NCBI GenBank assembly: GCA_044892505.1
Contig: CM097883.1
Span: forward strand, 308,822,533-308,886,000
DNA: 63,468 nt
Direction of reading: 5' to 3'
From: Schmidtea nova
Lineage: Eukaryota
In this document: piece by piece, positions 2,506 to 44,399 of the stretch
Layout: every line of letters begins with the position of its first letter
Numbering within the stretch: the first letter of the stretch is position 1
Notes under the pieces: model-generated
Database searches by the model: none
Seen by the model: only the letters and a program-made list of their open reading frames with translations
What the model was told of the DNA's origin: nothing
Program-made: the position numbers and the translations under genes

Positions 2506-3058
2506 ATTCTCATAATGATGACTATAGATCAAATTTTTTTTTATAAACAATAACACAATATTTCGGCACAGCCTTTATCAAGTGTGTATTTAATACACAC
2601 TTAAATACACGCTTGATAAAGGCTGTGCCGAAATATTGTGTTATTGTTTATAAAAAAATTTTGATCTATAGTCATNNNNNNNNNNNNNNNNNNNNNNNNN
2701 NNNNNNNNNNNNNNNNNNNNNNNNNNNNNNNNNNNNNNNNNNNNNNNNNNNNNNNNNNNNNNNNNNNNNNNNNNNNNNNNNNNNNNNNNNNNNNNNNNNN
2801 NNNNNNNNNNNNNNNNNNNNNNNNNNNNNNNNNNNNNNNNAACAAAATAAGCCGTTGCTGCAAAAATAATTTTATTAAGTGAGAAAACTTTCGATTATCA
2901 AATAATCCTCGTCAATCTCTCTTGAGATTGACGAGGATTATTTGATAATCGTAAATTTTCTCACTTAATAAAATTATTTTTGCAGCAACGGCTTATTTTG
3001 TTACTTATTTATTAATTAATTTAATACTTAATGCTGCTACCAAGGAATCACCATTTTA

Positions 3059-7700: not shown

Positions 7701-7733
7701 TTATTTTAAAATATACATATATACATATATATA

Positions 7734-7853
7734 TACTGGAACATCGATTTGCGTCGTTAATTGGGACTTGAAAAAGATGACGCAAATCGAGTTTTTAGTA
7801 TTGACGTATGTATAACCATATTTTGTTAATAAATACTAACAGAAAACAATTCC
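7734..7853. mobile_element. Left part of a pogo/Tigger-like MITE interrupted by the giant element
   Basis: TIR tactggaacatcgatttgcgtcgtt (7734-7758), preceded by TA repeats, matches the reverse complement of 37285-37309 at 21/25 positions. Confidence 0.65.
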
Positions 7854-8355
7854 TTTGTAATTGCTGGGCAAATAATTTTCTCTGTCTTCGCCGTTTCTGC
7901 CCAATGCGCTTGCGTTTTTGGTGCGTATTCGCCGATGAGGTGGTTGAATTTGCTGCAGGAGCTGTCTCATTCCGACTTTCGATTAGATCTGCGACATCCG
8001 TGCCTATGGAATTCACAGTCTTCTTTTCTGATGTCCAAGCTTGGTACGTAACCGGACGGATTTGCTCTCTGAGCTCCTTCTCAATATATGAGGCAGTTAC
8101 GGAATGGAGGCATTTTCGGAGTTCTATCTTTGTAGCCTCCCATTCCATTTGATAATCGGCTGCCGTCTGTTGGGCGCGCTCGGTTTTACTGATTTGCTCC
8201 TTCATTCGGGCCGGAGCAAACCAGCTTTTGCGCAAGTATGCAATCTGTGCCTCTGCTTTGATCAATTGTGCCTTGAGGAGACCCACTTCCTTGTCCTGGG
8301 CCCTCCGAATCCGCCACATCTTCTCCAATTCTCTCTGCATCAAATCGGGGTTCAT
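7854..8355 (-). pseudogene. Truncated copy of LTR ORF-B
   Basis: Identical to 34861->34360, then runs into flanking MITE DNA (the track protein's CFLLVFINKIWLYIRQY tail is flank-derived). Confidence 0.8.
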
Positions 8356-8541
8356 TCTATAATTTATTTAGGATATTTACTCTATGATTTAATTATATGA
8401 AAATTAAAATCTGATCATAGGATTATTAGGTCACGAATATGAACTATTAAAAGGTGAAACAGAACAACAATAAAAAAAAAACAAAAATTCACTAATGAAC
8501 TATAATATTTTAATACAATTTCAACATTGGTTAATCAGTGT

Positions 8542-9021
8542 TCATCTCCGAAATAAACAATGCAATTCGCAGTTAATCGGTTTCTGACGCAGACGAGCCC
8601 AGGAAAACGCAGGTTGTCCTTTCCAGCATTCCTTGCCGAAGGGTTTTCGTGGCAGGAATTCGTGTAGGCCTAGTTGGCATAGTTCCCGACGAGGGATATG
8701 CCCCCAATAAATTACACGGCTTGTACGTCAATCTGTGTTCTTGATCAGTACGACAAGTCGGCCAAATTTGTTCGAGTACGGCCTTTGAGAAATCGGCCAG
8801 TTCGGTCCTCCTCGATAGAGTATTTGGTCGTGCCCTCCTGTCCATATCGAGAACGGGCATTTTCGGCCAAACCCCTGTCGCCACTTATACATTTGGCAGT
8901 TGAGGGTTCGCAATATTGATGCTGGTAGATCCTTGAGCTGCGAGATATTTCCATTTCGCAGATTCTCTCGCTCCATATTCCGTAGTTGCGTTAATTGATT
9001 TATAAGTTCAGCTGTCGACAT
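8542..9021 (-). pseudogene. 3' LTR copy of LTR ORF-A with a premature stop
   Basis: The 8730 SNP changes GGA to TGA after LIKNTD (97 aa vs 159 aa in the 5' LTR). Confidence 0.8.
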
Positions 9022-10393
9022 CTATATTACATTTATTGGATATGAAATATCTGAGAAAAGGGGGGAAAATTCGTTGATAATTTAATTATACTGTATATAA
9101 TCACAAAAGTTACTTAAAAATAAGATTAATTTTCTTTCTCTCCGCCGTGATCTACCACGGTCGGAATAAAGAGTTCATAATTAGTCCTGTGCTATATACA
9201 GCATTCAGGAATTTTCAAATTTAATCAAGATTTCCGCGCTATATACAGCGGTCGGATTATAACTTGGGAACCGCGCCATATACGACGATCGGCCTATTTT
9301 TAGTAACTAATTTAATTTGGATTTTCCGACGCATTCCATCGCGATCGGAATTTATCGATATTAAAATTTTGTAGGCGAGATGCTGATTTCGAATGAAATC
9401 GGACTTTGGACTACGTTGGATTTTCTCATTTCAGCGAAATTATTCAAATTTATTTTATTTGTTGCTCACTGCTTTTCCATGCGGGAGGTTCCATTTCGAT
9501 TCAATTTACTAAAATTTTAAGAGTGAGCATGCCCTACCATGGGGTGTCCCTCCTTATCAATCCGCCCTCCGCAATCTACATATTGGGCCCTCGACCTTCG
9601 TCCGTTGTGCAACCCAGAATTAAATAATTTGCAAATGGTCTGTACTAGACTAAAAATCCAATCAAATTTTCTAACTAAAATTTCACATCTAAGTTAAATA
9701 ATAAAAAGGTTGAACCGCCATGTGAGACCCTGAGGCCCCACGACGACGACTCGGACTCCCTCGCCGCGTGAGCAGCATAGGAAGTATAGCTATAATCAAT
9801 GAAAAAAATAAAATAACGTTTACATATAAACTTTTAATTAAATAAAAATCATGGGTACATCATATAAGATAACATAAAAAATTACTTCCGTACTTGAATG
9901 TGTGGTTCCTTGTATGAAATTCGGTTTTTCCAAAGAATTACTCAAATCAAAGTTTAGTCTTGATCTTGAGTGAAAAATAACGTCTAAGTCTGTGATTTTT
10001 GGATCGGTATTTATACTGATCCGTCTGGTTGGATTGACCAATCAGGATCAGGCCGTCCATCAAAGTATTTTTATTATTTTAATCTAATCTAAACATTATT
10101 TTGTTTCCTTTTCCGGTTTCTCGCTGGGTGGTCCTGATTTTCCAAGTAATTAATTAATTATTTGTACTATTATTTTATTTAATTCTATTTTTTCTCCTTT
10201 CAGGCCCCCTTTTGCGGTTGTTTACCGGTTTATTTTCAAAATTTCCTTTTACTGAAAATTTATCAATTATTATTTGTCGTTTTATTGTTATTTTTAATTT
10301 GTTTTTCTTGCTATTTTTATTTTTATTATTTCTTTATTGTTTCATGCTTTTGTTCGTTTTATTGTGTTTTTAGGTGATTTGGCGGGCCCAACA

Positions 10394-10413
10394 TCACCCG
10401 GGGACCCCTAAAA
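10394..10413 (-). promoter_or_regulatory. Candidate polypurine-tract position (atypical)
   Basis: Minus strand ttttaggggtccccgggtga directly abuts the TGTTGGG start of the 3' LTR; G-rich but not pure purine. Confidence 0.4.
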
Positions 10414-10596
10414 TTGCGTCCCGCAATTAATTATACATAAATACTTATATTCATCATCCATAAAAAGTTTTATAAAGTTATACATGCAAAGAAAAATCAC
10501 ATAAGGTGATCGAATTTATACATATCATAAAGTTTGTCATTAAATAGTCAAAATGTAATGATTTGTCACAATAGTTCGGTAAGTTTATCATAATGT

Positions 10597-11166
10597 TTAT
10601 ACAATTTGTTCGATCGTCTGGCTCGCTTGGGGTTGAGTTCGGGTCCTCTCGTTGATCATTTGTAGCTCGTAGTGGGTTTGAATGTGGTTGAGATGGCTCC
10701 TTATTCGTTTTTGAGATCGGTTATCTCGTCTGGAGGTTTGGTTATAGATTTTCTGCTTTTGTTTTAGGATTTTTATTCTATATGAGGCGATTAGGATTGT
10801 GATTGCGATGATAGTTGTGCTGACTGCTAGGATTATGATGATTGCTATGATCCATTTCTCTTGATATTCTATTTCAGCTTGGGATAGGCTTTTTATGGGT
10901 TCTCTACCTTCTTTCAGGATTTTTCGGGTTTCTTCTAGTTTCAGTTGTTGGTTATCGAAGATTTGTTGGATTTGATGGTCTTGATTGTGAGGGTATTTCT
11001 GTCGGAATTCGTTGATTTCTTTAATTACTTCTTCGATTAGGCTGTCTACTTTCTGATAGGTTTTGTCGGGTAGAACTCGTAATTGGGTTTCGGTTAGTTG
11101 TAGATCTTCTCTCTGTAGGGTAATGGTTGTTAACCATAGGAGTGTTGCTATTGCGAGCTTTCTCAT
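10597..11166 (-). CDS. 189-aa putative type I membrane protein (signal peptide, helical ectodomain, TM, basic tail)
   Basis: First ATG at 11166 gives MRKLAIATLLWLTTITLQ; TM segment WIIAIIIILAVSTTIIAITILIASY is followed by RIKILKQKQK. Confidence 0.75.
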   Translation of the reverse strand: MRKLAIATLLWLTTITLQREDLQLTETQLRVLPDKTYQKVDSLIEEVIKEINEFRQKYPHNQDHQIQQIFDNQQLKLEETRKILKEGREPIKSLSQAEIEYQEKWIIAIIIILAVSTTIIAITILIASYRIKILKQKQKIYNQTSRRDNRSQKRIRSHLNHIQTHYELQMINERTRTQPQASQTIEQIV

Positions 11167-11241
11167 CTCTTTTATACATCGGTCAATACAGCTTGACACT
11201 TTTTATTTTACATAATTTATTTACACTTGGTTTCCGCACAT

Positions 11242-12303
11242 TTATACAAGGGTTTCGTTGGGTTCGTGAAAACCTTCGTCTTGAGGTTCCACTTGATTTA
11301 TGGGGAGTGGCATCCATATTACCGTGCTCCTCCACATTTCGACTTCTTCTCGGTATGTGTGGGATATCTGGATCTCTTCATCTAATAAGTATTCCAGATA
11401 GTTCGCCTGTTCTGTTAGGGTTTCAATTTGTTTTTCTAGTTCTGCCAATTTTTTCTCTCTCTCTTCCTTCTCCATCATTTCGGTTACTGCTGCTGTGATA
11501 CTTGTTTCTTTTATTGGTATTGGTTTTTCTGCCAACTTCTTTCTCAGTTCTTCGTTTTCTTTTGTCAAATTTGTTATGTTCTCTTCATAACTCTGCCTCG
11601 TTTCTTCCAGTCTTTCTTTAGTTCTTTTTAATTCTATTTTCTTCTGGGTGATCACTCCTTGATATCCATTTATGTCTCTTTTCATGTTTTCTTCCTTGTG
11701 ATTCCACATTCCGGTCAGCATACCTTTTAATTGTTCTTGATTGGCTAAATCTTCTCCCATTCTTTGTACTTGATAAGTTAATTCTTTTATTTTCTTGGCT
11801 TGTTCTCTGATAAATTGTTGTCTTTCTTTACTCCATATTTTTTTTGACGCTTCTTGACTGATCTTTTGCCCTAATTCCTCTTTTAATTCATCGATCTCTT
11901 TAAACAGTTTCCAATCATCGCTGTACGCTGTTCGTTCTATTATCTCCCTTGCTTCCTTGTAAGAGTCTTTCGCCTCTTTCTTCCAATATCTTGCTTGTTC
12001 TGTGATTGACTGAATCTTATGGTCTGTTTTTATTTGTTGTCTATCCCTATCCTCTCGTCGCTCTTTCATCATCTCTTTGTAGTATTCGTTTTGTTGTCTT
12101 AGCAGTTTGTAGACTTCTTCTATTTTTTCTCGACTTCTTTGATTCGTTTTCTCGGCTTCTCTTAGTGCTTGGGTTTGTCTTTCCAATTCCTCCTGTTTTC
12201 GATAATAGGCATGAATCCATATCCCAATCCGCTCCATGTGATTTCTGATCATTTCGTCTTGATGTGCTGTTACTTCTTGTAAGGTTACTTCTATATTTCC
12301 CAT
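11242..12303 (-). CDS. 353-aa coiled-coil protein of unknown function
   Basis: Intact ORF on the element strand, E/K/Q/R-rich with heptad-like pattern, acceptor-like tatAG two nt before the ATG. Confidence 0.75.
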   Translation of the reverse strand: MGNIEVTLQEVTAHQDEMIRNHMERIGIWIHAYYRKQEELERQTQALREAEKTNQRSREKIEEVYKLLRQQNEYYKEMMKERREDRDRQQIKTDHKIQSITEQARYWKKEAKDSYKEAREIIERTAYSDDWKLFKEIDELKEELGQKISQEASKKIWSKERQQFIREQAKKIKELTYQVQRMGEDLANQEQLKGMLTGMWNHKEENMKRDINGYQGVITQKKIELKRTKERLEETRQSYEENITNLTKENEELRKKLAEKPIPIKETSITAAVTEMMEKEEREKKLAELEKQIETLTEQANYLEYLLDEEIQISHTYREEVEMWRSTVIWMPLPINQVEPQDEGFHEPNETLV

Positions 12304-12416
12304 TTCTATAATTACAGATAAAAAGAATATTTAATCATTTTTTATTTTTATTGTTTTTGATTATTTGTTAATTCATATTGTTTCTATACATTTTATTTAC
12401 ATGGTTACTTCCTTCA

Positions 12417-13793
12417 TTACGCCAACCATCCTTTTCTGTCTGTTTTCTCAGGCCTCTCCATCTCTATGTATAGCGTGTCTGCATATAGTCGCTCCCATAG
12501 GTTTTCTTGCCTTATAAACATTGGTTCTCCTGCTGCTAGTCCGCATTCTGTTGTTGGTTTTTCGCTCGTACTCGTATGTTTGTCTGTTTCAAAGAACTTT
12601 TCTACTGGTTTTCCCATACTTTTGATTCTTATAATGACTCCTACTTTCAAGGGCCATTCTATTAGGTCATCGTATTCTCCTTTACATAGTGAGAAGAATA
12701 TTGACACGTGTGTTCCTTGTCCTCTTCCGTCTCCATTTGGGTATACTTTCAATCTTATTTTAACCCCGTTTTTCCATAAATAAAATGGTGGGCTTATTAC
12801 TGCTGTTTTCGTCATATTTCTGGCTTCTGCTAATTTGTCTCTGAAATCAGTTACTTTCCATAGGTAAGGTGCGATTGGTAAGTCCCTTCTTTCGTCAATT
12901 TCTCGTATTAATTGATTATATTGTATTTTCATTCCTTTTCCTAATTCTTCTATGGCTATTATTTTCCTTTCCATTCTTTCGCGAGTTAGTTCAAACTGCT
13001 CTCTTGTTTCTAGTAGTAAACTCATCATTATTTTATGTGATTCTACTTCTTTTTCTAATTTCTGAATTGTCCGTTCCGTTTCTTTAGTCGTTTCGTTTGT
13101 CATTTCCACATGCGTTAGTGCTGCTTCTTCTAGGTGTTGTTTCATTGATTGCCGCGTCCGCTTTTCTTTGCATCCCTGTTTGTTATATGGGCATTCTCTT
13201 GGCCTTTCGGTACATAGTTTCCAATGTTCATGTAATTTTATTTCTTCTGTTATTTCACAATTGTTTGGACATTTACTTACATATTGTCCGCATACTTTCT
13301 CCTCTGTTATATTCAAGTGTTCTTCTTCGATTTTTCTCCTTGTTTCTCGGGCTTCACAATACTCGCATGCGATTTCTTCTTCTTTACATTCTTCCTTGTG
13401 TTGTTCTCTCTTCTTTAGAATTATTGTCTGTTGGCACTTCTCGCATTCGGTTCTTTTCTCCTCGCACTTTTCCATATGGTTTTCTAGATTACTTATTTGT
13501 CCTTGCCATGTACAAGGTGTATTTACGCACTCCGTTGTGGTGCTCATAATTTCTCTTTGGGTTGCTTTGTCCGTTCTGGTTTCGTCCAACGCTATTCCTC
13601 CTTCTTTACATTCTGGGCATGTTGTTATTCCTGTTACATCTAATTCTTGTATACATTTTGTACATATTCTACATCCACATATCGTTTGTCTGGGTTCTCG
13701 TAGTAAATTGTTACATTTTCCGCATGTGAGTCTCTTGCTCCATTTTCTGTTTTCTAGTCTCAAAATTTCGATTATTCGTTCTTCTCTGTCCAT
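12417..13793 (-). CDS. TRAF-family protein (RING, TRAF zinc fingers, coiled coil, MATH/TRAF-C domain)
   Basis: RING CGKCNNLLREPRQTICGCRICTKC...CPEC; zinc fingers CVNTPCTW...HMEKC and CPYNKQGC...H; MATH YLWKVTDF...SPPFY...LKVYPNGDGRGQGTHVSIFFSLCKGEYDDLIEWP (TRAF2/3/5-like). Confidence 0.93.
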   Translation of the reverse strand: MDREERIIEILRLENRKWSKRLTCGKCNNLLREPRQTICGCRICTKCIQELDVTGITTCPECKEGGIALDETRTDKATQREIMSTTTECVNTPCTWQGQISNLENHMEKCEEKRTECEKCQQTIILKKREQHKEECKEEEIACEYCEARETRRKIEEEHLNITEEKVCGQYVSKCPNNCEITEEIKLHEHWKLCTERPRECPYNKQGCKEKRTRQSMKQHLEEAALTHVEMTNETTKETERTIQKLEKEVESHKIMMSLLLETREQFELTRERMERKIIAIEELGKGMKIQYNQLIREIDERRDLPIAPYLWKVTDFRDKLAEARNMTKTAVISPPFYLWKNGVKIRLKVYPNGDGRGQGTHVSIFFSLCKGEYDDLIEWPLKVGVIIRIKSMGKPVEKFFETDKHTSTSEKPTTECGLAAGEPMFIRQENLWERLYADTLYIEMERPEKTDRKGWLA

Positions 13794-13885
13794 TTTCTAA
13801 AATAATATATACATTCGACTTGTCATTTATTTTTGGTTTTTCTTGTTTTTATTTTTACATATTTACAGTTTTCCGCTTTATTTAT

Positions 13886-14242
13886 CTATGGCTCATTCGT
13901 TGAATCTGGTTCCGCTTCGTTGGTTAATCTATTTATTACCCAACTCATCCATCCTTCTTCGGATCCTTCTCTTTCTCCTCGTGTTAAATGGTTTATTTCT
14001 ATTGCTTGTCTTTGATTGGTGTTGCTTATCGTTTGATTTTCTCTGGTGAGTTCAGTTATCGCTCTTTGTTGTTCCTCTATTCTGTGTAATTGTTCGAAAC
14101 AGTTGTTATAACTTTCTGATAATAACATTTGTCTTTCCGCTAATTGGTTCTGTAATGAGTTGACTGTTCGTACTAATAAATCACATTGTGCTTTCCATCT
14201 CATAGCCATAGTTATTTCAGTTGTTTCGTCCTGTTCGGTCAT
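13886..14242 (-). CDS. 118-aa coiled-coil protein of unknown function
   Basis: Intact ORF between longer cargo ORFs, acceptor-like tttAG three nt before the ATG. Confidence 0.65.
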   Translation of the reverse strand: MTEQDETTEITMAMRWKAQCDLLVRTVNSLQNQLAERQMLLSESYNNCFEQLHRIEEQQRAITELTRENQTISNTNQRQAIEINHLTRGEREGSEEGWMSWVINRLTNEAEPDSTNEP

Positions 14243-14290
14243 TTTCTAAATTATATACATCATTTACTTTGTTTTTCTAGCTTTTTACAA

Positions 14291-14322
<32 letters not shown>

Positions 14323-14389
14323 ATCGATACCCATACTATTACGGTAATGCTTTGTTATTTACACTATTATTTACAGTCATAATCCGCCC

Positions 14390-17300: not shown

Positions 17301-17473
17301 ATTAGTATGAGTGCTAAGCATAATACTTCCATTTGGTAAGACACTCTTTCGGTTTCGTTTGTGGCAACTCTTGCTTCGGGTCTTTTTATTGTAATTCGTA
17401 TAGTTGGTGTTGTTTGCTTATCTATTACCTGGGGTTTTTTGTTTTCTGTTCCCTGTGTCTCTGTATGCAACAT
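14390..17473 (-). CDS. 1027-aa membrane protein with six Cys-containing FN3-like repeats and two TM anchors; probable frameshifted continuation of the polyprotein
   Basis: Repeated motif CW-x(n)-I.I.GL...Y.IC-x13-15-C. TM segments LIGLGILTATIPVIIALSAIWI (about 16064-16135) and VIGLISIGILIAYGIMTTSMIIYW (about 14573-14645). Overlaps the end of the 4633-aa ORF. Confidence 0.8.
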   Translation of the reverse strand: MLHTETQGTENKKPQVIDKQTTPTIRITIKRPEARVATNETERVSYQMEVLCLALILIIIKRLEEGIEIETMTITEVEDTQNTNIKCWARNNEEIGVNEIRKSRKPTTNKVIKVSEVKADKMYKLCLLEKETNKKGTTKCKTFQPGEVIKFGRRTRKRNKQIKRKINITLEIKEIEPNVKGVCWRKYEKETNERKTPQCRTSTGATTIQIKGLESKQTYEICLVKKNDQITINDLECGIYTTSSGTRTKTLTRKNKRRQRNKGKPKYTTTFKNNKQPISQEVTTKSEKKTSATLTLWKIENKTLEICWILVQKYIRRQSRECRKTNKEIKIERLQFNSEYEVCTIEKTDALENQQERCETYYTPVNATSKGITRKLEFRELSQTNEQMDAEKTITDPQAKWTPEEVIKEVKRKQEEREQLMRKLKGQYGIMFNQSEPIQTDENKEIKELIGLGILTATIPVIIALSAIWIRKINPKKSVTQWTNRDSTSHGVEMLEEEAREEPKKKEAKSGKLGINNKDKEIKEIKGEEKKYERRTRSLPQSSKWLGLTIILTLINREEATNLQAGIKIVNVQEVEKICWNREDEPIGKDNPLKCIVRKSNQDIVRIEGMDRGIMHRICIIGKEKKSGLPKTVVCQKYETPRLEWYKVKPTKKEIKNTIDRPATQKENTTNKPREGERSTNKTRERISPQQECVCIALILAMSKRIDKGIIIEQMAITIRKTSSNKLCWGTYNEPRKEYQVQTSDESRTNKEIEIQEIQMNEEGSICIWERGIQEGIEHCKTFQKGEILKFDEEELTKTERTLTLTGLDQTVKGICWTKHNPEGEEDNLTHCKEIKNKEKVELKKMEVNRTYAICTFTRKGSEKPECGLYQISEKLQQQIEPGNVENRTKENNVKQLLNRHWSTQEVMNKVKNQIQKERKPEAQTQNEIKANQNKGETNRGKTVIGLISIGILIAYGIMTTSMIIYWRYRKRNKATAIQWPDIKIMKQRIEIPEEIQKEFQRRTKGKEFWKQIEDDERYEEKTIMMV

Positions 17474-29400: not shown

Positions 29401-31326
29401 TGCTTCTTTTTCTACTTCTTTATCTTTTTGTACTATTTCTTTTCGACTTTCGTTGTCGGCTGGATTCGGGTCTATCGAATTCATTTCCAGTGTGGTTTCT
29501 TCCTCGCGAGTGTCTGTTTGGTTTATTGCTCTTAACATGTTAATTCTTAGAGGTTGTCGCTCTCTTTCTTGCTGTTTTTGTTCATCCTCTCTTTGTATTC
29601 TTGCCCATTCCTGAGCGTGTCGTGCTTGACTTTCTCGATTCAATCGTTCGTTTTCGCTTTCTATTTTTCTCATCATGCTAATTTGCTGTTGATTGGTTTG
29701 CGGATTTCCTCTCGTCGTATTGTTTATAAGTTCCGTCAATCTTTGGACTTCTTGCATTAAATGTATTTCTTTGGGGGTGGTTTTGTTCTGATTATTGTTA
29801 TTATTGACTTGTTGGTTCCCATAATCTGGTCGGTTTACGGTATTTGCTTGATTTCCGTAATTTGGTCGGTTCCCATTACTCTGCCAGTTTCCTCGTTGAT
29901 TACTTTTTTGTCCGCAATTTCTTGAATAGTGACCAGGTCGTCCGCAATTAAAACAGATTATTGTAGAACATCTGCTTTCCGAGTGTCCTTTGACTCCACA
30001 TTTTCCGCAATTCAAATTTTGATAGCATTCTTGCTGCCAGTGTCCCAACTTCCCGCATGTTTTACATTGTTTTGTTTGTCCTTGAGGGTTGTAATTGTTT
30101 TGGTTTCCAAAGTTCTGCACTTTATTTCCTTCATTCCTTCGTTGAGGGGGTGGTCGGTTTAATTGTTGCGAATTTGGAATGTGATTGTTGAGATTTACCT
30201 CTGGTTCGGTTTGTGCTGTGTCCATGGCTAAATAAATTCTGCCCTCACTTCCTATCATATGCAATTCAAATCGGTTAGCTGTTTCTAACGCTTGATCTAT
30301 GGTTTTGCATCCTTGACATCCTACTTGCGCTCTTATGTCGGGTCTTCTTAGTCCTCCTATGAAGATAGCTGCCATTAACTCCTCGTTTATTGGGCCTCCA
30401 TCCTTGAATACCGATTTTGCTAATTTTTTCAGTTCGCTCGCGTATACCGCATTAGATTCATTCATCTTTTGTTTCCTCATTGAGAATTCTATGAATGCCT
30501 CGCTTAGCACTTTATTTATTCCAAATGTTTGTTGGAAAAAATCCTTTATCGCTGTCCAGCTTGTAGGTGGATTGGTACCATTTTTCGCTTCCAAATATAG
30601 GTCCAATGCACTATCTTTCAAATATAACTGAATTCTGCTTACCGTTGTTTCAGCTTTCCATTTGCATACTTCCACGAATATGCCAAATTCTTTTAAAAAG
30701 GTTTCTAATTTACTCGCATCTCCGTTAAACGGTTCTCCTGAAAATTTATCCTTTATTTCTTCTCTTGGTTCACCCATTTCAATTCCGCTGTCTTGAGTTA
30801 TTTTACTTTCGTTTCCTCTTGTTTCTAGTTCGTTGTTATGTTCGTCTTCCGTTTTACTCGAGCTTGAATCGCTTTCTGTTTCTCTTATTCCTTCGTTATC
30901 TGATATTATACTTTCGTTATCACTCGCGTTGATTTCTATCTCTGGTTCTACCTCGTTTTCTACTTCTTCGATATTATCGTTGTTAGTTTCGTCGATTTCT
31001 CCTTCTTGTTCTATCTCGTGTTCTATTTCTTCGATATTATCGTTATTAGTTTCGTCGCTCTCTATTTCACTTGCTTGGTTCTCCTTGGGTTCGGCTTGGT
31101 TTTCTTTGTTACTTGAGCTGTTGCTTACTATTGACAATTTATCGTTTTCGGTAATCGATTTATCTCTTATTATTTTCCTCGATTTACTCCCTTGTGGGTT
31201 ATCTTTGCCGACTTTCTGCTTTTTTGTTGATTTTGTTGTAGTACTAGTTTTGTCTTTTTTATTATTGTTGCTACCGACTTTCTTTTCCGTTGGCTTTACT
31301 ACGACACTCTTTGCTCCTTTTCTCAA
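17425..31326 (-). CDS. 4633-codon Gag-UBL-Bcl2-Env-PR-RT-RNaseH-IN-ankyrin polyprotein
   Basis: Single uninterrupted frame with the motifs listed as sub-features. The track start is TTG; the first ATG is at 30777. Confidence 0.95.
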   Translation of the reverse strand: MRKGAKSVVVKPTEKKVGSNNNKKDKTSTTTKSTKKQKVGKDNPQGSKSRKIIRDKSITENDKLSIVSNSSSNKENQAEPKENQASEIESDETNNDNIEEIEHEIEQEGEIDETNNDNIEEVENEVEPEIEINASDNESIISDNEGIRETESDSSSSKTEDEHNNELETRGNESKITQDSGIEMGEPREEIKDKFSGEPFNGDASKLETFLKEFGIFVEVCKWKAETTVSRIQLYLKDSALDLYLEAKNGTNPPTSWTAIKDFFQQTFGINKVLSEAFIEFSMRKQKMNESNAVYASELKKLAKSVFKDGGPINEELMAAIFIGGLRRPDIRAQVGCQGCKTIDQALETANRFELHMIGSEGRIYLAMDTAQTEPEVNLNNHIPNSQQLNRPPPQRRNEGNKVQNFGNQNNYNPQGQTKQCKTCGKLGHWQQECYQNLNCGKCGVKGHSESRCSTIICFNCGRPGHYSRNCGQKSNQRGNWQSNGNRPNYGNQANTVNRPDYGNQQVNNNNNQNKTTPKEIHLMQEVQRLTELINNTTRGNPQTNQQQISMMRKIESENERLNRESQARHAQEWARIQREDEQKQQERERQPLRINMLRAINQTDTREEETTLEMNSIDPNPADNESRKEIVQKDKEVEKEAEKGEETEINQEERRKIWKKGMMVIMPNDHMFRFQYNAKEKVEILFNKVNQMIPGVTKLPREAFLQIGDAPSVKLKLTDTWENVGVTETKRNVMRIKEIKPEEIPPPIRHETRIRRIFEGKMIRRRLKEIDELGKKMGKVEVIEDKSEPTPEIDKNEPEPTENIQGETNQIAHINMLRNTTREFSDEEEDSDISSLAGDILNESEDENKEREVIKTSEPTQIKVDEIQKLLDNSLEVIYNEEFMDKKQYRKFMKALLQMNYKEWLQDREVDMLNRYVGKLIEEPLLNYTISIIINTSTPRIWIKTPFTDDIYRWVEDRLGSSYKNKFIYSQNRLVKKRTHLVETGIWPGEITLLSICDEKEEENLQEVAREANTCFEKRIKPRLEYEKERVLRKNLNSLIEQIIPQVKKHRKELMRSEYEKLKRCIECIRDTSHTRWSQISHDKLIAKMGKTMFRQGKITDLKISVELPNEDTKEIEVVADCTIKELINVINETLVQREPEDEWEDDIIIQYNEHVLWDHDERRLYKIGIWDNHQTIHVSRMDDTPRETAKDEKRERERRKEVVRKLQQIIDIYRNWRIRPEWENVLEELNLNRRIRTPGEKQWNEKGKCWEPKEGEYEEEYKRGIEDDCEPEIGRVCMVTRKATPIDLDGPETAAMWLEREKQKTEEFVEILKTNAHGKRKVIKGLADFFVVNGEDITCLRKVAKAIAEYKRVNEWCPEQLDHVIRKWRNQEFSQEIPQKVHLRIIYPNKDKEELWVGIAEKIRDIKKKLRYEPPFHLQHQGRSLDNSLEIGITPAQLDLMNTLTVEAIAGQPLKRKEENHKPHGSISTPSPMKSVLTPGTSSRRSETTPRGTRERTPPQPYDVDEILTDSDDMIEELTELTREKDDNIFERIQELPTTIQVTNTGEAEVEEEIIIEEVNDLTEDETRGANVENVQLTQEMERWLEERANEPRDVTEETGRATRFVETGTGMDKRPRGRPKTDPATVVVRNKDEKRQDQWELCLRKLNKIAEMKEKETTPICQGEEWISKTIMEILAIIDPELRKYWRLTEISEKAKSLHSAIAPILPEFIKEKTKSNHLDWQGTTTLIKKLTEGAETDNKYVIAIAYTIYNLLTLSRGRPKPTALERHIKNTAKIIAREIEPYVINKGGWETFIKTNQKKTQAKNMKKKFEKILEELEKEQTGTGNAKSSMNLSSIIMMMLIWMISTDSATAFKVFDCDQMKLGEKYSLRGTEQCKDATPVELQKIKKEQWYHVYQEAELIKTMVNECKVQKTRFAFYCGRGHYSAIVMPGTEREPIVLQGEDCEALFKHGEVTTRDKIKIRGKPGMMMQQTYYVAGRITGGEGYCQGETYPIFGVPATNLVVMDTYIVELKSYEAFFEPTTGEMKTLSMCKIDRSMCQTGMSTLVYKPKVNECQLQLLQGAKFDEIQGKTFQEEDDDDKDRAKHLKEALENKRQLKPDHREKRIEMRATPTVLITTNQDVGMRFIKGKATLKCSTTVYETNYPGIYVSKQEVPNAKPKIDTMDIKLHLYVNNKMDFLFHRGQASLQKVYYNLINNDCILNREILKTKLAVAITNPDSAMPLLPLREGHFGRVVGEAMYVYICEKTHASLAATTQLKPGTCTNELEIDYKGKVRYVQPVTRIINPPGFEPNPFNCSNAYGPLYQKPDGKWVMFPGRSEVIAPREFELMQLSKDRQFSDVDVSNNGIYSPKDLEAARQNILFPARREALLSNIVTITGGTDYRERPNYELLLSPAHFKKATENMMKAMWGRFLIFGQMMAGILGVILIIQIVRVIITQMLACFDIYKREKKVNWKMVVGFLPFLAKTMVLHGHSKDIHRIKRLLKILAKMKGTDEEVGRKFKKIRNDEQARQQLKKERKGLWERMKGYKTQNDSSDDDDDDDDYKGGQVYKNQAPQYIEKNPADAWKCYAPPPTMYQEPLQGGKNNTMQMMPMTNVYPMIPEDYKMRRCRSVDPQGDTHTIAVMSSNTGPVLTTTIEINGREIEAMIDTGANISAIDIKWIPQEQRREIERTNVHVIACSKEVVEVAGRWWVKIRHLNTEIDTYVAVIPALSVPCIIGTDLMPALFKEIVIDLGTMRLKDRTGQICAIEAKVTSSKQMIIPARKEKICYVKIDPTIQGDMIFEPSKRFEKRKALPMARGLVNINDDGEIPINVVNFDEEDKIIYENERLGKLTPMMDIELPIEGAEKDKEPTWNIDSELLNEDQKKQLEKLLIEYKDIFAASDLDLGTCDVTLHTIPLTDETPIALRPYKLAEAQKAVAEAEVKKMLDAEVIEPSCSPWQFPVVMVKKKDGTQRFCIDYRRLNTVTKRDTYPLPDINEMLLTLQGAAYFTSLDLKSGYWQIKMKEEDKEKTAFTIGRDLYQFRKMPFGLTNAPASFQRCMNFVTHGIKQCMVYIDDLLIYSSTFEQHIQDIRDVFVRLRQWKLKLKPSKCDWAKEKVTFLGHIVSAKGKEPDPRNIDKVKECPVPKTIIQIQEFLGLCGYYRKFIKDYAGIAKPIQELVKKDVSFIWGDEQQTAFETLRDKLITAPILVHPDFKKPFLLATDASGYAAGAVLGQYDDEGKERVIGYYSRTFKKHEKNYSVTEREALAIILAIKHFKYLLWGHIICITTDHQPLVWLGQHKETSSRLMRWAMQLQEYSPDIKFKSGKANANADCMSRLTFPELTDPDVQRICVLIAEDLDFSELKKDQQEDKELGQIIEFLTSRNMEAFKDNKELKEHIGKYQHRYIINKGWLLIQDGEKRLMCLPENRRKEIMIQYHDGKLGGHMSEKKTINRMRQKYYWRTMEEDIKEWIKNCLTCATRKDSGKKWKNPLQPMPIPAEPMTTIAMDVIGPLPESLNGNIYILVITDYLTKFPEAFAMQDQKAKTVAKILVEEICCRYGTPKQILTDQGTNFMSELLNEVTNYFRIAKLRTSPYHPQTNGQTERFNGTLIRMLSNYVSRHQTDWDEYIKLCLMAYRMSIHAATKLSPFQLMYGRECNMPIDLEYQPPLSQYMEDDDYVTKFKERMQEIWKTAELNIKFYQESYKDLHDQKKNVKANDLKPGDWVIIETPEIIPGTVKKLQRPGRGPYEIIYKKDNNVKVKLINRPLIRPIYVNTCRCKKVPKTITTTPENRIITRSQTARINMLRANATEDDKEEIRQKEIRNKEIILKAREIMGRWHVKDEAGISRDIRHIISRYAQGLPTEPIISELLEKIPEILLLKDVGGQPALHNAIECKNMERAKEFLKIAKETNQNLDIGNREQETPLMTAAIHQADKEMIDLLIKAHFSWTERDREDKTVLNHVIWSSHQPMLKYIIANCTWEIDELVKRDIIKEAIKIGKCNTIRKLIKWKRPEDDTWVLDINEVYSEGQNALLRYLLKFTCDQKTLLTLLDRGNINITKNEEEYKFDKEKEALFNKIRKWCAKPLDKLITYKDINNFNEKYQTIVSEYEELVKILNHPEKCKQVLEKKERESNKKLTPLFKAEAPYQARLDAIQEKAKELLPEFENSKHALEILGALVEKVHAYAKGTYNGNDIVIIKKEMPVTFLLPKDGIMPIHRALRNGKDRKVMEIARVMLNCGSNMNMIDEKGDTLMVFAARAKTKTKVLEELYKAGAGLTGKTDKDNSILDVALLTHNWEMVNFIKTVPNQEEIDHLTDSVKKPSVLAMMNNVELTESILTWINPNTNEPAFRINKFTEHNQNWCIRSALITYKWPEILKMFMERKDLRITTSPKEEKYTGKWKELMKTYINNWIKAKKEILEYKSTNKVIPEQVETQEFEASNLTTLAYAKLIEEINVEDDIFDEPGGDDNTDSDDGNNSENSNDHEPPDKEENERKDKKRDKEEKKSEDEKQRDEDGEQGKNVQGDKNDTQRTGYKSTIKPFFKPELLLLTMIITLINPSQGMTCEERAIIQIKNAKGIERVCWSKKDKITEQNSPMDCRISKHEQEIIEINDLDLNTWYKICTVRKQKHPRSHNTIACCIQRHREQKTKNPR
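17470..17755 (-). other. Polyprotein C-terminus: signal-like hydrophobic segment plus first FN3-like repeat
   Basis: ELLLLTMIITLINPSQG then RVCW...IIEINDLDLNTWYKICTV...IAC, paralogous to the unit after WLGLTIILTLIN in the 1027-aa ORF. Confidence 0.65.
18400..19740 (-). other. Ankyrin repeat region C-terminal to integrase
   Basis: GGQPALHNAI, QETPLMTAAI, DKTVLNHVI, IMPIHRAL, KGDTLMVFAAR and DNSILDVAL, spaced as ankyrin repeats in two clusters. Confidence 0.85.
20030..21100 (-). other. Integrase (HHCC zinc finger, DDE core, GPY/F)
   Basis: YHDGKLGGH...CLTC; MDVIGPL; TDQGTNF; HPQTNGQTERFN; GRGPYEI. Confidence 0.95.
21370..22680 (-). other. Reverse transcriptase and RNase H
   Basis: RFCIDYRRLN, LDLKSGYWQI, MPFGLTNAPASFQR, YIDD (22153-22164); TDASG, EREALA, TDHQPL. 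Confidence 0.97.
23130..23436 (-). other. Retropepsin aspartic protease
   Basis: IEAMIDTGANIS (DTG at 23371-23379) and CIIGTDLM. Confidence 0.93.
23900..25827 (-). other. Class III fusion-type (chuvirus/herpes gB-like) envelope glycoprotein, about 640 aa
   Basis: Signal-like IIMMMLIWMISTDSATA, then FKVFDC...YSL...C, FYCG, GYCQGETY, DCILNREIL...NP...GEAMYVYIC, CTNEL...YVQPVTRII, GIYS, and TM WGRFLIFGQMMAGILGVILII. This matches the cysteine/motif pattern of chuvirus-like glycoproteins as I recall it. Confidence 0.8.
25931..26322 (-). other. Bcl-2-like domain
   Basis: BH2-like IEPYVINKGGWETF; degenerate BH1 region DNKYVIAIAYTIY; helical pattern of the expected length. Confidence 0.7.
26974..27180 (-). 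other. Ubiquitin-like fold 3
   Basis: LRIIYPN...EKIRDIKKKL...FHLQHQGRSLDNSLEIGI...TLTV parallels ubiquitin TIENVKAKI...LIFAGKQLEDG. Confidence 0.55.
27781..28020 (-). other. Ubiquitin-like fold 2
   Basis: LKISVELPNEDTKEIEVVADCTIKELI...IIIQYNEHVL...LYKIGIWDNHQTIHV. Confidence 0.65.
29113..29340 (-). other. Ubiquitin-like/UBX-like fold 1
   Basis: MMVIMPNDHMFRFQYNAKEKVEILFNKV...LTDTWENVGV...VMRI. Confidence 0.45.
29914..30777 (-). other. Gag capsid-like domain plus three CCHC zinc knuckles
   Basis: FNGDASKLETFLKEF...LYLKDSALDLY...RKQKMNES...FIGGL; CKTCGKLGHWQQEC, CGKCGVKGHSESRC, CFNCGRPGHYSRNC. Confidence 0.93.
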
Positions 31327-31936
31327 GGGGATTACTTTTGTATACTCAATTTTCCTGTTCTATCTCTTATCGTTTTCTGATTCTTCTTGCTTGATTGATT
31401 GATTTGATTGATTTGTATATCTAAAATACAAAGGTCCTCAACGATACATTATTGTTATCGTCGCGCTTTTATTCCCTTTCTTTCGGGATTACTTATTACT
31501 GGGTTTTCATTATTTCCCAATTCCCAGATTCCCCTTTATTTTTAGTCTATTTAAATTATCTATAGACTGGTCACAATTATCTATTTACGTCGTAATAATT
31601 ATCTATGTTTTATCAAATCGATTACTTTTCCCACAGTTTCCCAATTATTGGTCGCTCGAGCGCTCTAATTCCCTGAGTCTTTCTGACTCGTTTATCATTA
31701 TTTTATCATTTCTATTCATTATTCCCTGCTAGCAATCGTTTTACTCATTCTGCCGGTGGCTCCGGTCAGCTCAAATCTCTACTATTCTCCTTGCATGCTT
31801 TACTTAAGGTTGCATAATCAGCTTTACTCGCATTCTCTTAACTACTAGTGCGCACTACTCTAAATTTCGTCGACGATTATACTATGGGTCTATATTCCCT
31901 CTGTTACTATTTATCCGGATATCTCTATAATTCACT

Positions 31937-32191
31937 ATGGCTCTTCTGGCCTCAATTTTATATCTCACATGGCTCTATTGGCCTCATTTTACTATCTCAA
32001 ATGGCTCTATTGGCCTCAATTTAATCTCTCAAATGGCTCTATTGGCCTCAATTTAATCTCTCAAATGGCTCTATTGGCCTCAATTTAATCTCTCAAATGG
32101 CTCTATTGGCCTCAATTTAATCTCTCCAATGGCTCTATTGGCCTTAATTTAATCTCTCAAATGGCTCTCTTGGCCTCAATTTAATCTCTCC
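31937..32191. repeat. Tandem array, 8 x 32 bp
   Basis: Unit atggctctattggcctcaatttaatctctcaa starts at 31937, 31969, 32001, 32033, 32065, 32097, 32129 and 32161. Confidence 0.95.
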
Positions 32192-32232
32192 ATAACGCCT
32201 AGCTAGGTCATTCAATAAGGCTCATTGGCCTC

Positions 32233-32527
32233 AACCCTTTTTTTCAAGGGACAAACCGCTAATAACCCTTTGTTTCAAGGGACAAATCTCATAACCCTTT
32301 GTTTCAAGGGACAAATCTCCTAACCCTTTGTTTCAAGGGACAAATCTCCTAACCCTTTGTTTCAAGGGACAAATCTCCTAACCCTTTGTTTCAAGGGACA
32401 AATCTCCTAACCCTTTGTTTCAAGGGACAAATCTCATAACCCTTTGTTTCAAGGGACAAATCTCATAACCCTTTGTTTCAAGGGACAAATCTCCTAACCC
32501 TTTGTTTCAAGGGACAAATCTCCTAAC
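32233..32527. repeat. Tandem array, about 10 x 29 bp
   Basis: Unit taaccctttgtttcaagggacaaatctc(c/a) with period 29 from 32263 to 32523, plus a variant first unit at 32233. Confidence 0.95.
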
Positions 32528-33003
32528 TTTGCTTAACCGGTTAATTATAATTCTTAACTTCGCTAGCGATTAATATTTCTCAGCTGAGTTATAACTACTT
32601 CTATGCGAGCTGACTATGCACCTTTTATTATTTCAACACTATCGTTTATTTCTTTGTTCTATTATAACTATTTCCTGATCCGTCTGCTTCAACTTTTTAT
32701 TTATTTTTCTCTATGCGCGCTTTACTCCATCAAGATTTCCCTATTTCTCTCCCCAACCAAAATATACAAAAAGATCGCGTTGGTCCATTAATGCAGGATG
32801 TGGTGATCAATCACATCACAAAAACTTTCCAACATTTGCGATGGGCCCCTTTCTATACACCCTGACTAGGTTGATCAATCGGTACTTCCCAATGGATTCT
32901 TATCGGACTACTTTGCAGTAGCTCAAAAATTATTTATATATGACAATTGTACCCATGATTTCCCCATTAATAAATCCATAAAATTCCATTCAAATTTTAT
33001 TTA

Positions 33004-33465
33004 TTATAAATATACAATAATTTTATCGTCTATCATCAGGTTGCACATAGGACATAGGTCGCACTTGCTGGCACATATTTTACAAAAACGAAAATGTCCA
33101 CAAGGTAAAAACATAATTTGTATCTCGCTATCCTCACATATATAGCACTGTCGGTATTTTTTCGCTGCTTCTACCCCCTGCGCCCTCCATCGATTGTATG
33201 TTGGGGTTAATCGTTGTTCTATTTGCCTGCACTTAATGTTTAGTTCTGCATTTTCTAATCGTGCTCTGTACCATTTGTAGCGGGTCTCTATGTCGATTTT
33301 TCTTGTCCTTTCTGTTATCTTTATTAATTCATCTGTTTCCTCAGTCTGTGTTGTGGGTTCCTGAAATTCAATTTCTCTAAATCGGTTTATTTTCTTGCCA
33401 ATCGTTTCTAATGTTTCGCTTTCTGTGTTGAGAAATTCTTCAATTTCTTTCAGTTTTTCCTCCAT
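33004..33465 (-). CDS. 153-aa coiled-coil plus C-terminal IAP-type RING finger protein (no BIR domain)
   Basis: CYICEDSEIQIMFLPCGHFRFCKICASKCDLCPMCNLMIDDKIIVYL parallels the cIAP/XIAP C-terminal RING and ends at the C-terminus. Confidence 0.85.
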   Translation of the reverse strand: MEEKLKEIEEFLNTESETLETIGKKINRFREIEFQEPTTQTEETDELIKITERTRKIDIETRYKWYRARLENAELNIKCRQIEQRLTPTYNRWRAQGVEAAKKYRQCYICEDSEIQIMFLPCGHFRFCKICASKCDLCPMCNLMIDDKIIVYL

Positions 33466-33772
33466 TTACTAAATAAATAATCGTTTTAACTCTGTTATTT
33501 TTATCGTTTTAAGGTAGTAATATGTTTCGTTTTGTATCTTTTAATATTTAACTCCCCCCGTGTTTCCGAAAATTGTCGTCCCGACAAATTATCTATGCAT
33601 GCATTTTAATTTTTAAATTCACTTTTGTTCACTGCCGTGTTGTTATTTTAATTTTTATACAATAATTTAAATTTAATTATAACCTTTCTGTTTTTTATTA
33701 AATTAATTGACCCGAGCATTTCAAACCTCTCTGCAGATTTTACATTTACATTTTTCCGATAAAACGAAGTTT

Positions 33773-33790
33773 ATCCCGGCTGAGCCCCCA
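33773..33790 (-). promoter_or_regulatory. Primer binding site, tRNA-Pro type
   Basis: Minus strand TGGGGGCTCAGCCGGGAT matches the classical tRNA-Pro PBS TGGGGGCTCGTCCGGGAT at 16/18. Confidence 0.85.
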
Positions 33791-34264
33791 AATTTATGCT
33801 GGGTTCATGGAGGGGTTAGATGAAAAATGTTCTAACAATGACTAGGGATCCCTCATCCATGATCATGCATAAAATTGCAATTTTACACTCAAGCGCCCTT
33901 GATTATTTCCCTATATAATCAAGTTGGTGATGCGCAGGGTGGTTAAACAATGATGGGCAGGTGAGCACTATCGCTAGTACTACTCCCCATTTATGTTTAC
34001 GGGTCCATTGCTGCCGTTAGAAGGACTTATGCTTTAATCATCCACTTATGTATTCCGTGTTAATCTTTCAGAAAATTTATTTTTATCATTACCCAGTCTG
34101 CGAGAAGTATCTCAACGAATGCTCGCTTAATTATTTAATTATCTCTATTCGGTATTTGGTAAAATAAATTTACACTTTTGTTCTATCTTTATCTAATCAT
34201 TGGTAAAGTTAATTAAATCAATTTAAATGAACGATAAAATTCTTAAGCCAATACAACAATTTAT

Positions 34265-34861
34265 TTAATTTTTAATTAGTTCGGTAAAAACTCCCGCCGG
34301 AGGAAAAATCTCCGTCAATAATGCCTCCCCGGTCATCTGATGTAGACCATCGACTTGGATTTGTAATTGCTGGGCAAATAATTTTCTCTGTCTTCGCCGT
34401 TTCTGCCCAATGCGCTTGCGTTTTTGGTGCGTATTCGCCGATGAGGTGGTTGAATTTGCTGCAGGAGCTGTCTCATTCCGACTTTCGATTAGATCTGCGA
34501 CATCCGTGCCTATGGAATTCACAGTCTTCTTTTCTGATGTCCAAGCTTGGTACGTAACCGGACGGATTTGCTCTCTGAGCTCCTTCTCAATATATGAGGC
34601 AGTTACGGAATGGAGGCATTTTCGGAGTTCTATCTTTGTAGCCTCCCATTCCATTTGATAATCGGCTGCCGTCTGTTGGGCGCGCTCGGTTTTACTGATT
34701 TGCTCCTTCATTCGGGCCGGAGCAAACCAGCTTTTGCGCAAGTATGCAATCTGTGCCTCTGCTTTGATCAATTGTGCCTTGAGGAGACCCACTTCCTTGT
34801 CCTGGGCCCTCCGAATCCGCCACATCTTCTCCAATTCTCTCTGCATCAAATCGGGGTTCAT
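34265..34861 (-). CDS. LTR ORF-B, 198 aa, coiled coil plus basic NLS-like patch
   Basis: Intact ORF containing KRKRIGQKRRRQRK; tatAG one nt before the ATG. Confidence 0.65.
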   Translation of the reverse strand: MNPDLMQRELEKMWRIRRAQDKEVGLLKAQLIKAEAQIAYLRKSWFAPARMKEQISKTERAQQTAADYQMEWEATKIELRKCLHSVTASYIEKELREQIRPVTYQAWTSEKKTVNSIGTDVADLIESRNETAPAANSTTSSANTHQKRKRIGQKRRRQRKLFAQQLQIQVDGLHQMTGEALLTEIFPPAGVFTELIKN

Positions 34862-35047
34862 TCTATAATTTATTTAGGATATTTACTCTATGATTTAATT
34901 ATATGAAAATTAAAATCTGATCATAGGATTATTAGGTCACGAATATGAACTATTAAAAGGTGAAACAGAACAACAATAAAAAAAAAACAAAAATTCACTA
35001 ATGAACTATAATATTTTAATACAATTTCAACATTGGTTAATCAGTGT

Positions 35048-35527
35048 TCATCTCCGAAATAAACAATGCAATTCGCAGTTAATCGGTTTCTGACGCAGAC
35101 GAGCCCAGGAAAACGCAGGTTGTCCTTTCCAGCATTCCTTGCCGAAGGGTTTTCGTGGCAGGAATTCGTGTAGGCCTAGTTGGCATAGTTCCCGACGAGG
35201 GATATGCCCCCAATAAATTACACGGCTTGTACGTCCATCTGTGTTCTTGATCAGTACGACAAGTCGGCCAAATTTGTTCGAGTACGGCCTTTGAGAAATC
35301 GGCCAGTTCGGTCCTCCTCGATAGAGTATTTGGTCGTGCCCTCCTGTCCATATCGAGAACGGGCATTTTCGGCCAAACCCCTGTCGCCACTTATACATTT
35401 GGCAGTTGAGGGTTCGCAATATTGATGCTGGTAGATCCTTGAGCTGCGAGATATTTCCATTTCGCAGATTCTCTCGCTCCATATTCCGTAGTTGCGTTAA
35501 TTGATTTATAAGTTCAGCTGTCGACAT
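35048..35527 (-). CDS. LTR ORF-A, 159 aa, unknown function
   Basis: Intact ORF in a GC-richer island of the LTR; tatAG immediately before the ATG. Confidence 0.6.
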   Translation of the reverse strand: MSTAELINQLTQLRNMERENLRNGNISQLKDLPASILRTLNCQMYKWRQGFGRKCPFSIWTGGHDQILYRGGPNWPISQRPYSNKFGRLVVLIKNTDGRTSRVIYWGHIPRRELCQLGLHEFLPRKPFGKECWKGQPAFSWARLRQKPINCELHCLFRR

Positions 35528-36899
35528 CTATATTACATTTATTGGATATGAAATATCTGAGAAAAGGGGGGAAAATTCGTTGATAATTTAATTATACTGT
35601 ATATAATCACAAAAGTTACTTAAAAATAAGATTAATTTTCTTTCTCTCCGCCGTGATCTACCACGGTCGGAATAAAGAGTTCATAATTAGTCCTGTGCTA
35701 TATACAGCATTCAGGAATTTTCAAATTTAATCAAGATTTCCGCGCTATATACAGCGGTCGGATTATAACTTGGGAACCGCGCCATATACGACGATCGGCC
35801 TATTTTTAGTAACTAATTTAATTTGGATTTTCCGACGCATTCCATCGCGATCGGAATTTATCGATATTAAAATTTTGTAGGCGAGATGCTGATTTCGAAT
35901 GAAATCGGACTTTGGACTACGTTGGATTTTCTCATTTCAGCGAAATTATTCAAATTTATTTTATTTGTTGCTCACTGCTTTTCCATGCGGGAGGTTCCAT
36001 TTCGATTCAATTTACTAAAATTTTAAGAGTGAGCATGCCCTACCATGGGGTGTCCCTCCTTATCAATCCGCCCTCCGCAATCTACATATTGGGCCCTCGA
36101 CCTTCGTCCGTTGTGCAACCCAGAATTAAATAATTTGCAAATGGTCTGTACTAGACTAAAAATCCAATCAAATTTTCTAACTAAAATTTCACATCTAAGT
36201 TAAATAATAAAAAGGTTGAACCGCCATGTGAGACCCTGAGGCCCCACGACGACGACTCGGACTCCCTCGCCGCGTGAGCAGCATAGGAAGTATAGCTATA
36301 ATCAATGAAAAAAATAAAATAACGTTTACATATAAACTTTTAATTAAATAAAAATCATGGGTACATCATATAAGATAACATAAAAAATTACTTCCGTACT
36401 TGAATGTGTGGTTCCTTGTATGAAATTCGGTTTTTCCAAAGAATTACTCAAATCAAAGTTTAGTCTTGATCTTGAGTGAAAAATAACGTCTAAGTCTGTG
36501 ATTTTTGGATCGGTATTTATACTGATCCGTCTGGTTGGATTGACCAATCAGGATCAGGCCGTCCATCAAAGTATTTTTATTATTTTAATCTAATCTAAAC
36601 ATTATTTTGTTTCCTTTTCCGGTTTCTCGCTGGGTGGTCCTGATTTTCCAAGTAATTAATTAATTATTTGTACTATTATTTTATTTAATTCTATTTTTTC
36701 TCCTTTCAGGCCCCCTTTTGCGGTTGTTTACCGGTTTATTTTCAAAATTTCCTTTTACTGAAAATTTATCAATTATTATTTGTCGTTTTATTGTTATTTT
36801 TAATTTGTTTTTCTTGCTATTTTTATTTTTATTATTTCTTTATTGTTTCATGCTTTTGTTCGTTTTATTGTGTTTTTAGGTGATTTGGCGGGCCCAACA

Positions 36900-44397: not shown

Positions 44398-44399
44398 GT

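Follow-up and report, generated by a model that had tools for sequence, protein, structure and literature searches.

The window analysed here, 63,468 nucleotides of Schmidtea nova DNA (GenBank assembly GCA_044892505.1, contig CM097883.1), carries on its minus strand a 29,046-bp long terminal repeat (LTR) element (36899-7854, 3' LTR incomplete). It fits the published description of the planarian Burro elements, giant LTR retrotransposons called gypsy-like in a review (PMC6431247); the assignment is by that description and not by sequence identity to Burro-1 to -4. Nearly every accessory open reading frame (ORF) of the element starts 0-3 nt behind a YAG trinucleotide (Y, C or T), and these signals are likely real 3' splice sites. 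By sequence comparison, the pattern is general to the element family. We would give an even chance to a reading in which there is one LTR transcript, whose ATG-free leader is cis-spliced to alternative last exons that probably each end at a separate poly(A) site.

YAG signals at the accessory starts

An earlier note on this DNA had described an acceptor-like TAG 0-3 nt upstream of nearly every accessory ATG, and the seven sequence contexts it quoted all lie where it had put them. TAG precedes the starts at 35527, 34861, 33465, 14242, 13793 and 12303 with offsets of 0, 1, 3, 3, 3 and 2 nt, i.e. in six of the seven accessory ORFs, the exception being ORF H (11166). ORF D (start 17473, no TAG nearby) is not an accessory gene, because it continues the frame of the polyprotein in copy L043 and in a sister family. 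The genes of the element are:

35048-35530 including TAG, minus strand: ORF A, 159 aa, without Pfam match; TAG offset 0, weak score
34265-34865 including TAG, minus strand: ORF B, 198 aa, without Pfam match; TAG offset 1, rank 9
33004-33471 including YAG, minus strand: ORF C, 153 aa, RING; YAG offset 3, rank 10
17425-30777, minus strand: polyprotein, 4,450 aa, with CCHC knuckle, viral fusion glycoprotein, protease, reverse transcriptase (RT), RNase H, integrase and ankyrin (Pfam)
14390-17473, minus strand: ORF D, 1,027 aa, polyprotein tail, split off in the window copy
13886-14242, minus strand: ORF E, 118 aa; YAG offset 3, rank 32
12417-13793, minus strand: ORF F, 458 aa, TRAF-like (zinc fingers, MATH); YAG offset 3
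11242-12303, minus strand: ORF G, 353 aa, a single weak filament match; YAG offset 2
10597-11166, minus strand: ORF H, 189 aa, hydrophobic stretches; last gene

As a background rate, TAG stands 0-3 nt upstream of 38 of the 622 ATGs in the element. Shuffling the 60 nt upstream of each start gives a probability of 8e-7 for six or more hits in seven, with motif and window picked post hoc; other families were therefore tested independently. Acceptors were scored with a host matrix, for which a myosin profile was aligned to 20 host loci with only GT/AG demanded; 69 of 114 introns were kept, and 45 with gaps or weak flanks were excluded. The 69 introns have a median length of 55 nt and carry T (41), C (15), A (12) or G (1) at position -3. 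Five of the seven accessory starts exceed the lower quartile of host scores, versus one of 88 other non-coding ATGs (Fisher, 2e-6) and six of 570 other ATGs of the element. Among its 2,309 AGs, the sites of G, F, B, C and E rank 1, 4, 9, 10 and 32, with lower ranks for 31421 (63), A (175) and H (711 or worse).

The signal is YAG and not a stop codon, since copies of the element switch between TAG and CAG: the ORF C site reads CAG in 16 and TAG in six of 22 copies, and for the ORF A site CAG is seen in one copy and again in a second allele. The AG of the ORF B site is retained in 39 of 40 copies and the acceptor at 31421 is unchanged in all 22, a constancy that is weak evidence because the copies are about 97% alike; the TAG/CAG exchange, which also occurs between orthologues, is the informative part. 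A function of TAG as stop in stop-start coupling is ruled out by the CAG variants, by out-of-frame cases and by the lack of an upstream ORF ending there.

Pfam searches of the same genome yielded four further families: a sister family (78% identity in the polyprotein core, 30-55% in the accessory proteins), a 21-22-kb relative that lacks RT and has seven ORFs further downstream, and two smaller families with Env. YAG stands 0-3 nt before the first ATG in 10 of their 18 ORFs (1.68 expected, P 9e-7), which are partly non-independent (ten align to ORFs of the window element, one of them by RING only, and two to each other). For comparison, YAG at this distance is found for 101 of 1,073 other ATGs in five of the relatives' loci. 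Within 0-7 nt the count rises to 15 of 18 (3.29 expected), starts being taken as the first ATG, so that two of the three misses are ORFs with YAG before the second Met. YAG-bearing starts in the relatives include ORFs without homologue in the window element; a homologue of E that starts about 90 codons further upstream has YAG at its own start, and the sister-family orthologue of H has CAG at offset 2. Offsets shift the frame between orthologues (F from 3 to 1, G from 2 to 1), as expected after an ATG-free leader.

Leader, polyprotein exon and gene ends

The features upstream of the polyprotein, together with the terminal repeats, are:

33797-36899, minus strand: 5' LTR, 3,103 bp, TG...CA, containing the promoter-like site, the leader and ORFs A and B; end set from the 3' LTRs of other copies
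36514-36548, minus strand: ATTGG box and TATAAATA, putatively promoter-like; same arrangement in the sister family
36392-36490, minus strand: predicted ATG-free leader exon, start approximate
36386-36391, minus strand: predicted leader splice donor GTAATT, about 130 nt downstream of TATA
36296-36298, minus strand: strong acceptor nearest to the leader donor, 96 nt past it, rank 3 of 2,309
33773-33790, minus strand: primer-binding-site-like 18-mer after the LTR, with a putative match to tRNA-Pro
31905-32585, minus strand: two tandem arrays with 29- and 32-nt units, within the predicted intron of the polyprotein mRNA
30778-31423, minus strand: acceptor 31421 and ATG-free stretch, its last 582 nt open in the polyprotein frame
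7854-10393, minus strand: 3' LTR, truncated at 7854, in which the acceptors of A (9022) and B (8357) are repeated

Not a single ATG occurs in the 5,680 nt of 48 distinct leader variants (1.8 expected per leader), which share ancestry and include loci chosen by the pattern adjoining the donor. All 48 have an ATG within 95 nt after the donor, and the T content changes from 0.30 to 0.55 across it. One variant (two loci) is without the donor motif and has a similar GAA|GTAAT further on. In the sister family AG|GTAATT stands at the corresponding place in all five leaders, three of them with an ATG near the presumed cap.

The earlier note had also named an acceptor upstream of the polyprotein; the site at 31421 is present, but 643 nt before the ATG rather than 0-3 nt. 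These 643 nt contain no ATG in any frame (8.8 expected; reached in none of 2,000 shuffles), a condition that holds in 19 of 20 copies, and the 640 nt before the site contain 11 ATGs. The matching 483 nt of the sister family are likewise free of ATG. The first 60 nt after 31421 tolerate frameshifting indels; the next 190 codons are open, with indels of 9 and 63 nt, and the other two frames of the stretch hold 18 and 23 stops. We infer that the polyprotein mRNA has its coding exon from 31421 onwards and that it is scanned, perhaps up to a non-AUG start codon. The ATG-less open stretches in the polyprotein frame comprise about 190 codons in the window (31359-30778, minus strand) and 120 in the sister family (L117, 8700-9072); near the beginning of both stands the same AAA ATT GAG, a candidate for such a start.

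Under cis-splicing from the leader, a single LTR-driven transcript would span all genes, and the short ATG-free LTR leader would be joined to the acceptor of each. Every unit of acceptor, ORF and 3' end signal would be recognised as an alternative last exon, and each single-gene mRNA would end at its own poly(A) site. The polyprotein mRNA would be spliced as well, and would not be the genomic RNA, because splicing would remove ORFs A-C, the primer site and the tandem repeats; full-length RNA would arise by skipping of all sites. Cis-splicing is favoured because of the conserved ATG-free leader and its donor, and it would account for the leader as well as the free offsets and distant sites. Over 7800-17700, four sequencing runs that may be of DNA or RNA give full coverage, and none of the 15 joints listed, out of 18, corresponds to a minus-strand intron, an outcome that counts neither for nor against splicing.

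The spacers of the 3' gene cluster contain the following signals:

14243-14389, minus strand: spacer 1 (147 nt), TGTAAATA at 14375 and 14363, A27 tract 14317-14291, acceptor 14246
13794-13885, minus strand: spacer 2 (92 nt), TGTAAATA at 13867, AATAAA, acceptor 13797 (rank 4)
12304-12416, minus strand: spacer 3 (113 nt), TGTAAATAAA at 12401, acceptor 12306 (rank 1)
11167-11241, minus strand: spacer 4 (75 nt), TGTAAATAAA at 11225, without good acceptor

TGTAAATA has five occurrences in the element, all confined to the four 3' spacers. Across three families, 15 stops have a gene close downstream, and TGTA[ACT]A lies 15-21 nt past 14 of them; it follows none of three last genes at that distance and none of A, B and C, and within 60 nt after the stop of ORF H the TGTA motif was not found. 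The same twin motif follows two of 11 host TRAF stops, these two being paralogues, and all nine sense-strand matches of the Pumilio consensus are non-coding in the element. The TGTA motif may serve as a donor, as a Pumilio site or as part of a poly(A) signal. A TATA reading of TGTATATA before E and F was rejected, as it lies too near the ATG.

Among 20 flank-matched copies, the tract that is A27 in the window copy (14317) measures A5 in 16 and A10-31 in four, with A16 in one more copy; other non-coding A runs reach 10-14 in single copies only. The RT-less family has A24-42 in the spacer after TRAF in four of eight loci (two near-duplicates); its tracts follow AATAAA at 24 nt or AATATA at 16 nt, and one replaces about 33 nt. 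In the F-G spacer, A13-17 tracts occur in three other copies, with none in a reversed control. Such tracts would stem from RNAs polyadenylated at internal sites, whose tails were captured through template switching. The proposal of the earlier note that the acceptors serve separate mRNAs agrees with the sequence evidence; its 'nested set' is probably wrong, because poly(A)-signal-like motifs and inserted A tracts behind the ORFs suggest that the 3' ends are separate.

Objections and alternative routes

Several observations weigh against cis-splicing from the LTR leader. ORF H is preceded by AAG and GAG only, without any YAG fit, and the sites at 35528 and 31421 score at the 10th and 16th percentile of host acceptors. 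The leader donor ranks 25 of 867 GTs, donor scores being weak evidence because host donors are degenerate, and it may serve the acceptor at 36296 alone. Leader and 3' cluster are 22-25 kb apart; the longest host intron in our sample, bounded by 10-kb loci, measures 4.6 kb. AATAAA closely follows the TGTA motif in some spacers only, and slippage in A-rich DNA could have produced the A tracts. According to PMC5068929, planarian poly(A) signals are not preceded by UGUA, which leaves a cleavage factor Im (CFIm) reading of the motif unsupported. Genome patterns for spliced retrocopies found nothing for junctions at E or at F and a single, unrelated match for the leader; a copy whose match starts at 14244, tried as such a retrocopy, is a microhomology deletion like two other junctions examined. 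Finally, genes in flatworm operons are spaced by about 100 nt (PMC8629364), with a median of 99 in S. mansoni (PMC12582326); this same-strand spacing fits the 3' cluster (75-147 nt), not ORF C or the polyprotein.

Between cis-splicing and spliced-leader (SL) trans-splicing the earlier note had not chosen, and both remain candidates, with leader and donor in favour of cis. ORFs A and B are situated within the LTR, and the accessory gene of the smaller relatives has its own promoter-like site, which would be a third route missing from its list.

The main rival, though rather unlikely in our estimate, is an operon comprising the element or at least its 3' cluster, in which cleavage at a poly(A) site would free the next gene and the host SL would be added at YAG. 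The succession of a 3' end motif and an acceptor within 75-147 nt (73-238 nt in the relatives) agrees with it, Schmidtea does trans-splice (PMC10899757), and the nematode element Cer1 makes a spliced mRNA carrying SL1 (PMC3315495); a mixed cis/trans case is possible, because flatworm acceptors are often used by both kinds of splicing. However, the element has in cis, further upstream, a conserved ATG-free leader and its donor, the acceptors of C and of the polyprotein are 0.8 and 1.6 kb past the previous stop, and the genome pattern search found no leader-bearing retrocopy of E or F, a weak point. The flatworm leader ends in AUG (PMC9851317), which about half of the offsets put out of frame, and orthologues switch frame; as only 28% of S. 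mansoni targets are in frame, this AUG is a weak, non-discriminating test. Burro proviruses would then be built as operons in which as many as nine genes have a poly(A) site and an acceptor apiece and are resolved by the host SL machinery, a picture we regard as doubtful. If true, TRAF, RING and IAP-like genes would rely on the SL RNAs of planarians, and the cut sites could be read from poly(A) tails captured in genomic copies.

Local use of the acceptors is improbable, be it with an own promoter and a short 5' intron for each gene or group, or with the spacer itself as a short intron from TGTAAAT to YAG. For the first variant, the single accessory gene of the two smaller families has ATTGG, TATA and G|GTAATT about 115-120 nt before its acceptor, and ORF A in the LTR is preceded by TATA-like sites in both the window element and the sister family; the conserved promoter-like pair was, however, not found before E-H in the window element. 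For the second, T|GTAAAT is in use as a host donor (GTAAAT in 6/69 introns, T at -1 in 26/69) and the motif-to-YAG distances of 50-130 nt are compatible with host introns (median 55). Yet removal of spacer introns alone would leave a polycistronic mRNA, and the motif, an almost exact 8-mer whose distance to the stop is fixed, is more constrained than host donors; it also occurs behind host stops.

Least probable is the lack of any splicing, the signals being a by-product of AT-rich spacers, of ORF calling after stops, of start context or of captured host genes: four of the six TAGs do share the frame of their ATG, and in three of the 11 host TRAF ORFs an AG with a positive score lies no more than 5 nt from the first ATG, but composition-matched shuffles, CAG variants that are not stops, a signal that tracks new starts and an ATG-free zone beginning at the 31421 site all oppose it.

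Known systems and further observations

In complex retroviruses and foamy viruses, one leader donor serves many acceptors situated just before the accessory starts, and the foamy viruses have the donor before the primer site and a spliced pol mRNA. The mRNAs of both share a 3' end in the LTR, whereas the window element seemingly has a 3' signal per gene. The adenovirus major late unit is similar in its common leader, alternative acceptors and several poly(A) sites; adenovirus differs in being an unrelated DNA virus that needs no full-length RNA.

Like Burro / GYPSM1 (about 30 kb, PMC6431247), the window element has tandem repeats, accessory ORFs, and both ankyrin and MATH/TRAF domains (Pfam), and Env sits between Gag and the protease, RT, RNase H and integrase in a single polyprotein. 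It differs in its TRAF, a separate ORF downstream of pol. BIR or BCL2 motifs, which the described members carry but which do not clearly define the group, gave no Pfam match in the window element; a BIR-RING ORF is present in the RT-less relative. Cer1 of C. elegans is likewise a gypsy element using host splice sites, which must be skipped for unspliced RNA, and its spliced RNA is found with and without SL1 (PMC3315495); it makes one spliced 2.4-kb mRNA and leaves Gag-Pol unspliced, whereas the window element has up to eight units and a polyprotein mRNA that looks spliced. The BARE retrotransposon (PMC3735527) also has separate RNA pools for translation and copying, but a single ORF, of which splicing gives Gag only. 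SL operons of flatworms and nematodes (PMC8629364, PMC12582326) share same-strand genes about 100 nt apart with a 3' signal followed by an acceptor; they consist of host genes, mostly pairs, whereas the window element has a cis donor upstream and a conjectural SL. The element type, and spliced subgenomic RNAs in retroviruses, Cer1 and BARE, are known already.

Planarian Burro elements are abundant, are expressed and stand under PIWI control (PMC8532177). Among their genes are regulators of apoptosis and of ubiquitin, and the literature covered does not describe how these are expressed. RNAi of the smedwi-2 type increases Burro RNA. Our literature search, which did not extend to the original Burro paper, found no account of Burro splicing or accessory-gene expression, and the examined parts of PMC8532177, PMC11410931 and PMC13238120 contain nothing on Burro splicing. 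If leader cis-splicing is true, one promoter would drive eight or more genes and the polyprotein, with 3' ends per gene; the polyprotein mRNA would be distinct from the genomic RNA, and some planarian TRAF, RING and IAP transcripts may be element-derived. The acceptor and donor signals supply exact primer sites for testing.

RT copies that are nearly identical number at least 111 in the genome; many of them have frames of about 5,650 codons, and the longest reach 5,736. Five of six whole copies of the family have a 4-bp target duplication, and the 3' LTRs of other copies extend to the equivalent of about 33797. In the window copy, 5' and 3' LTR differ by one mismatch across 2,540 bp; despite this single-base difference, the 3' LTR breaks off inside ORF B at 7854, without target duplication, and the flank beside the cut (7705-7829) is an imperfect inverted repeat. 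The LTR interior (window 35400-36200; L001, L004, L009, L015; L088, L090, L091) occurs in alternative versions with differing ORF A alleles, and protein genes within the LTR are found in solo LTRs and in both terminal copies. Copies L001, L003, L035 and L041-L043 are internally deleted, with microhomology at the junctions, and in L042 A10 replaces about 30 nt inside pol.

The RT-less relative (L092-L101, L119-L123) is present in high copy number and looks non-autonomous from its gene content: a protease and ankyrin ORF is followed by E-like, TRAF, BIR-RING and G-like ORFs and three unknown ones. The smaller families with Env in the polyprotein (L046-L063) have frames of about 3,400 codons, an LTR of about 860 bp and one accessory ORF with its own promoter-like site that resembles ISG20-type exonucleases. 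A protein search with ORF F gave distant TRAFs only, planarian relatives not being found; a dense host MATH/TRAF cluster with several tandem arrays (G000:C2:405-455 Mb, L104-L114) is a possible source or sink of the element's TRAF. Elsewhere in the window, a second, small gypsy element (43050-48085, plus strand) has 308-bp LTRs (99.7% alike) and a pol split into several ORFs, and two near-perfect hairpins with 58- and 79-nt arms (2518-2675, 2841-3002) lie beside an N stretch.

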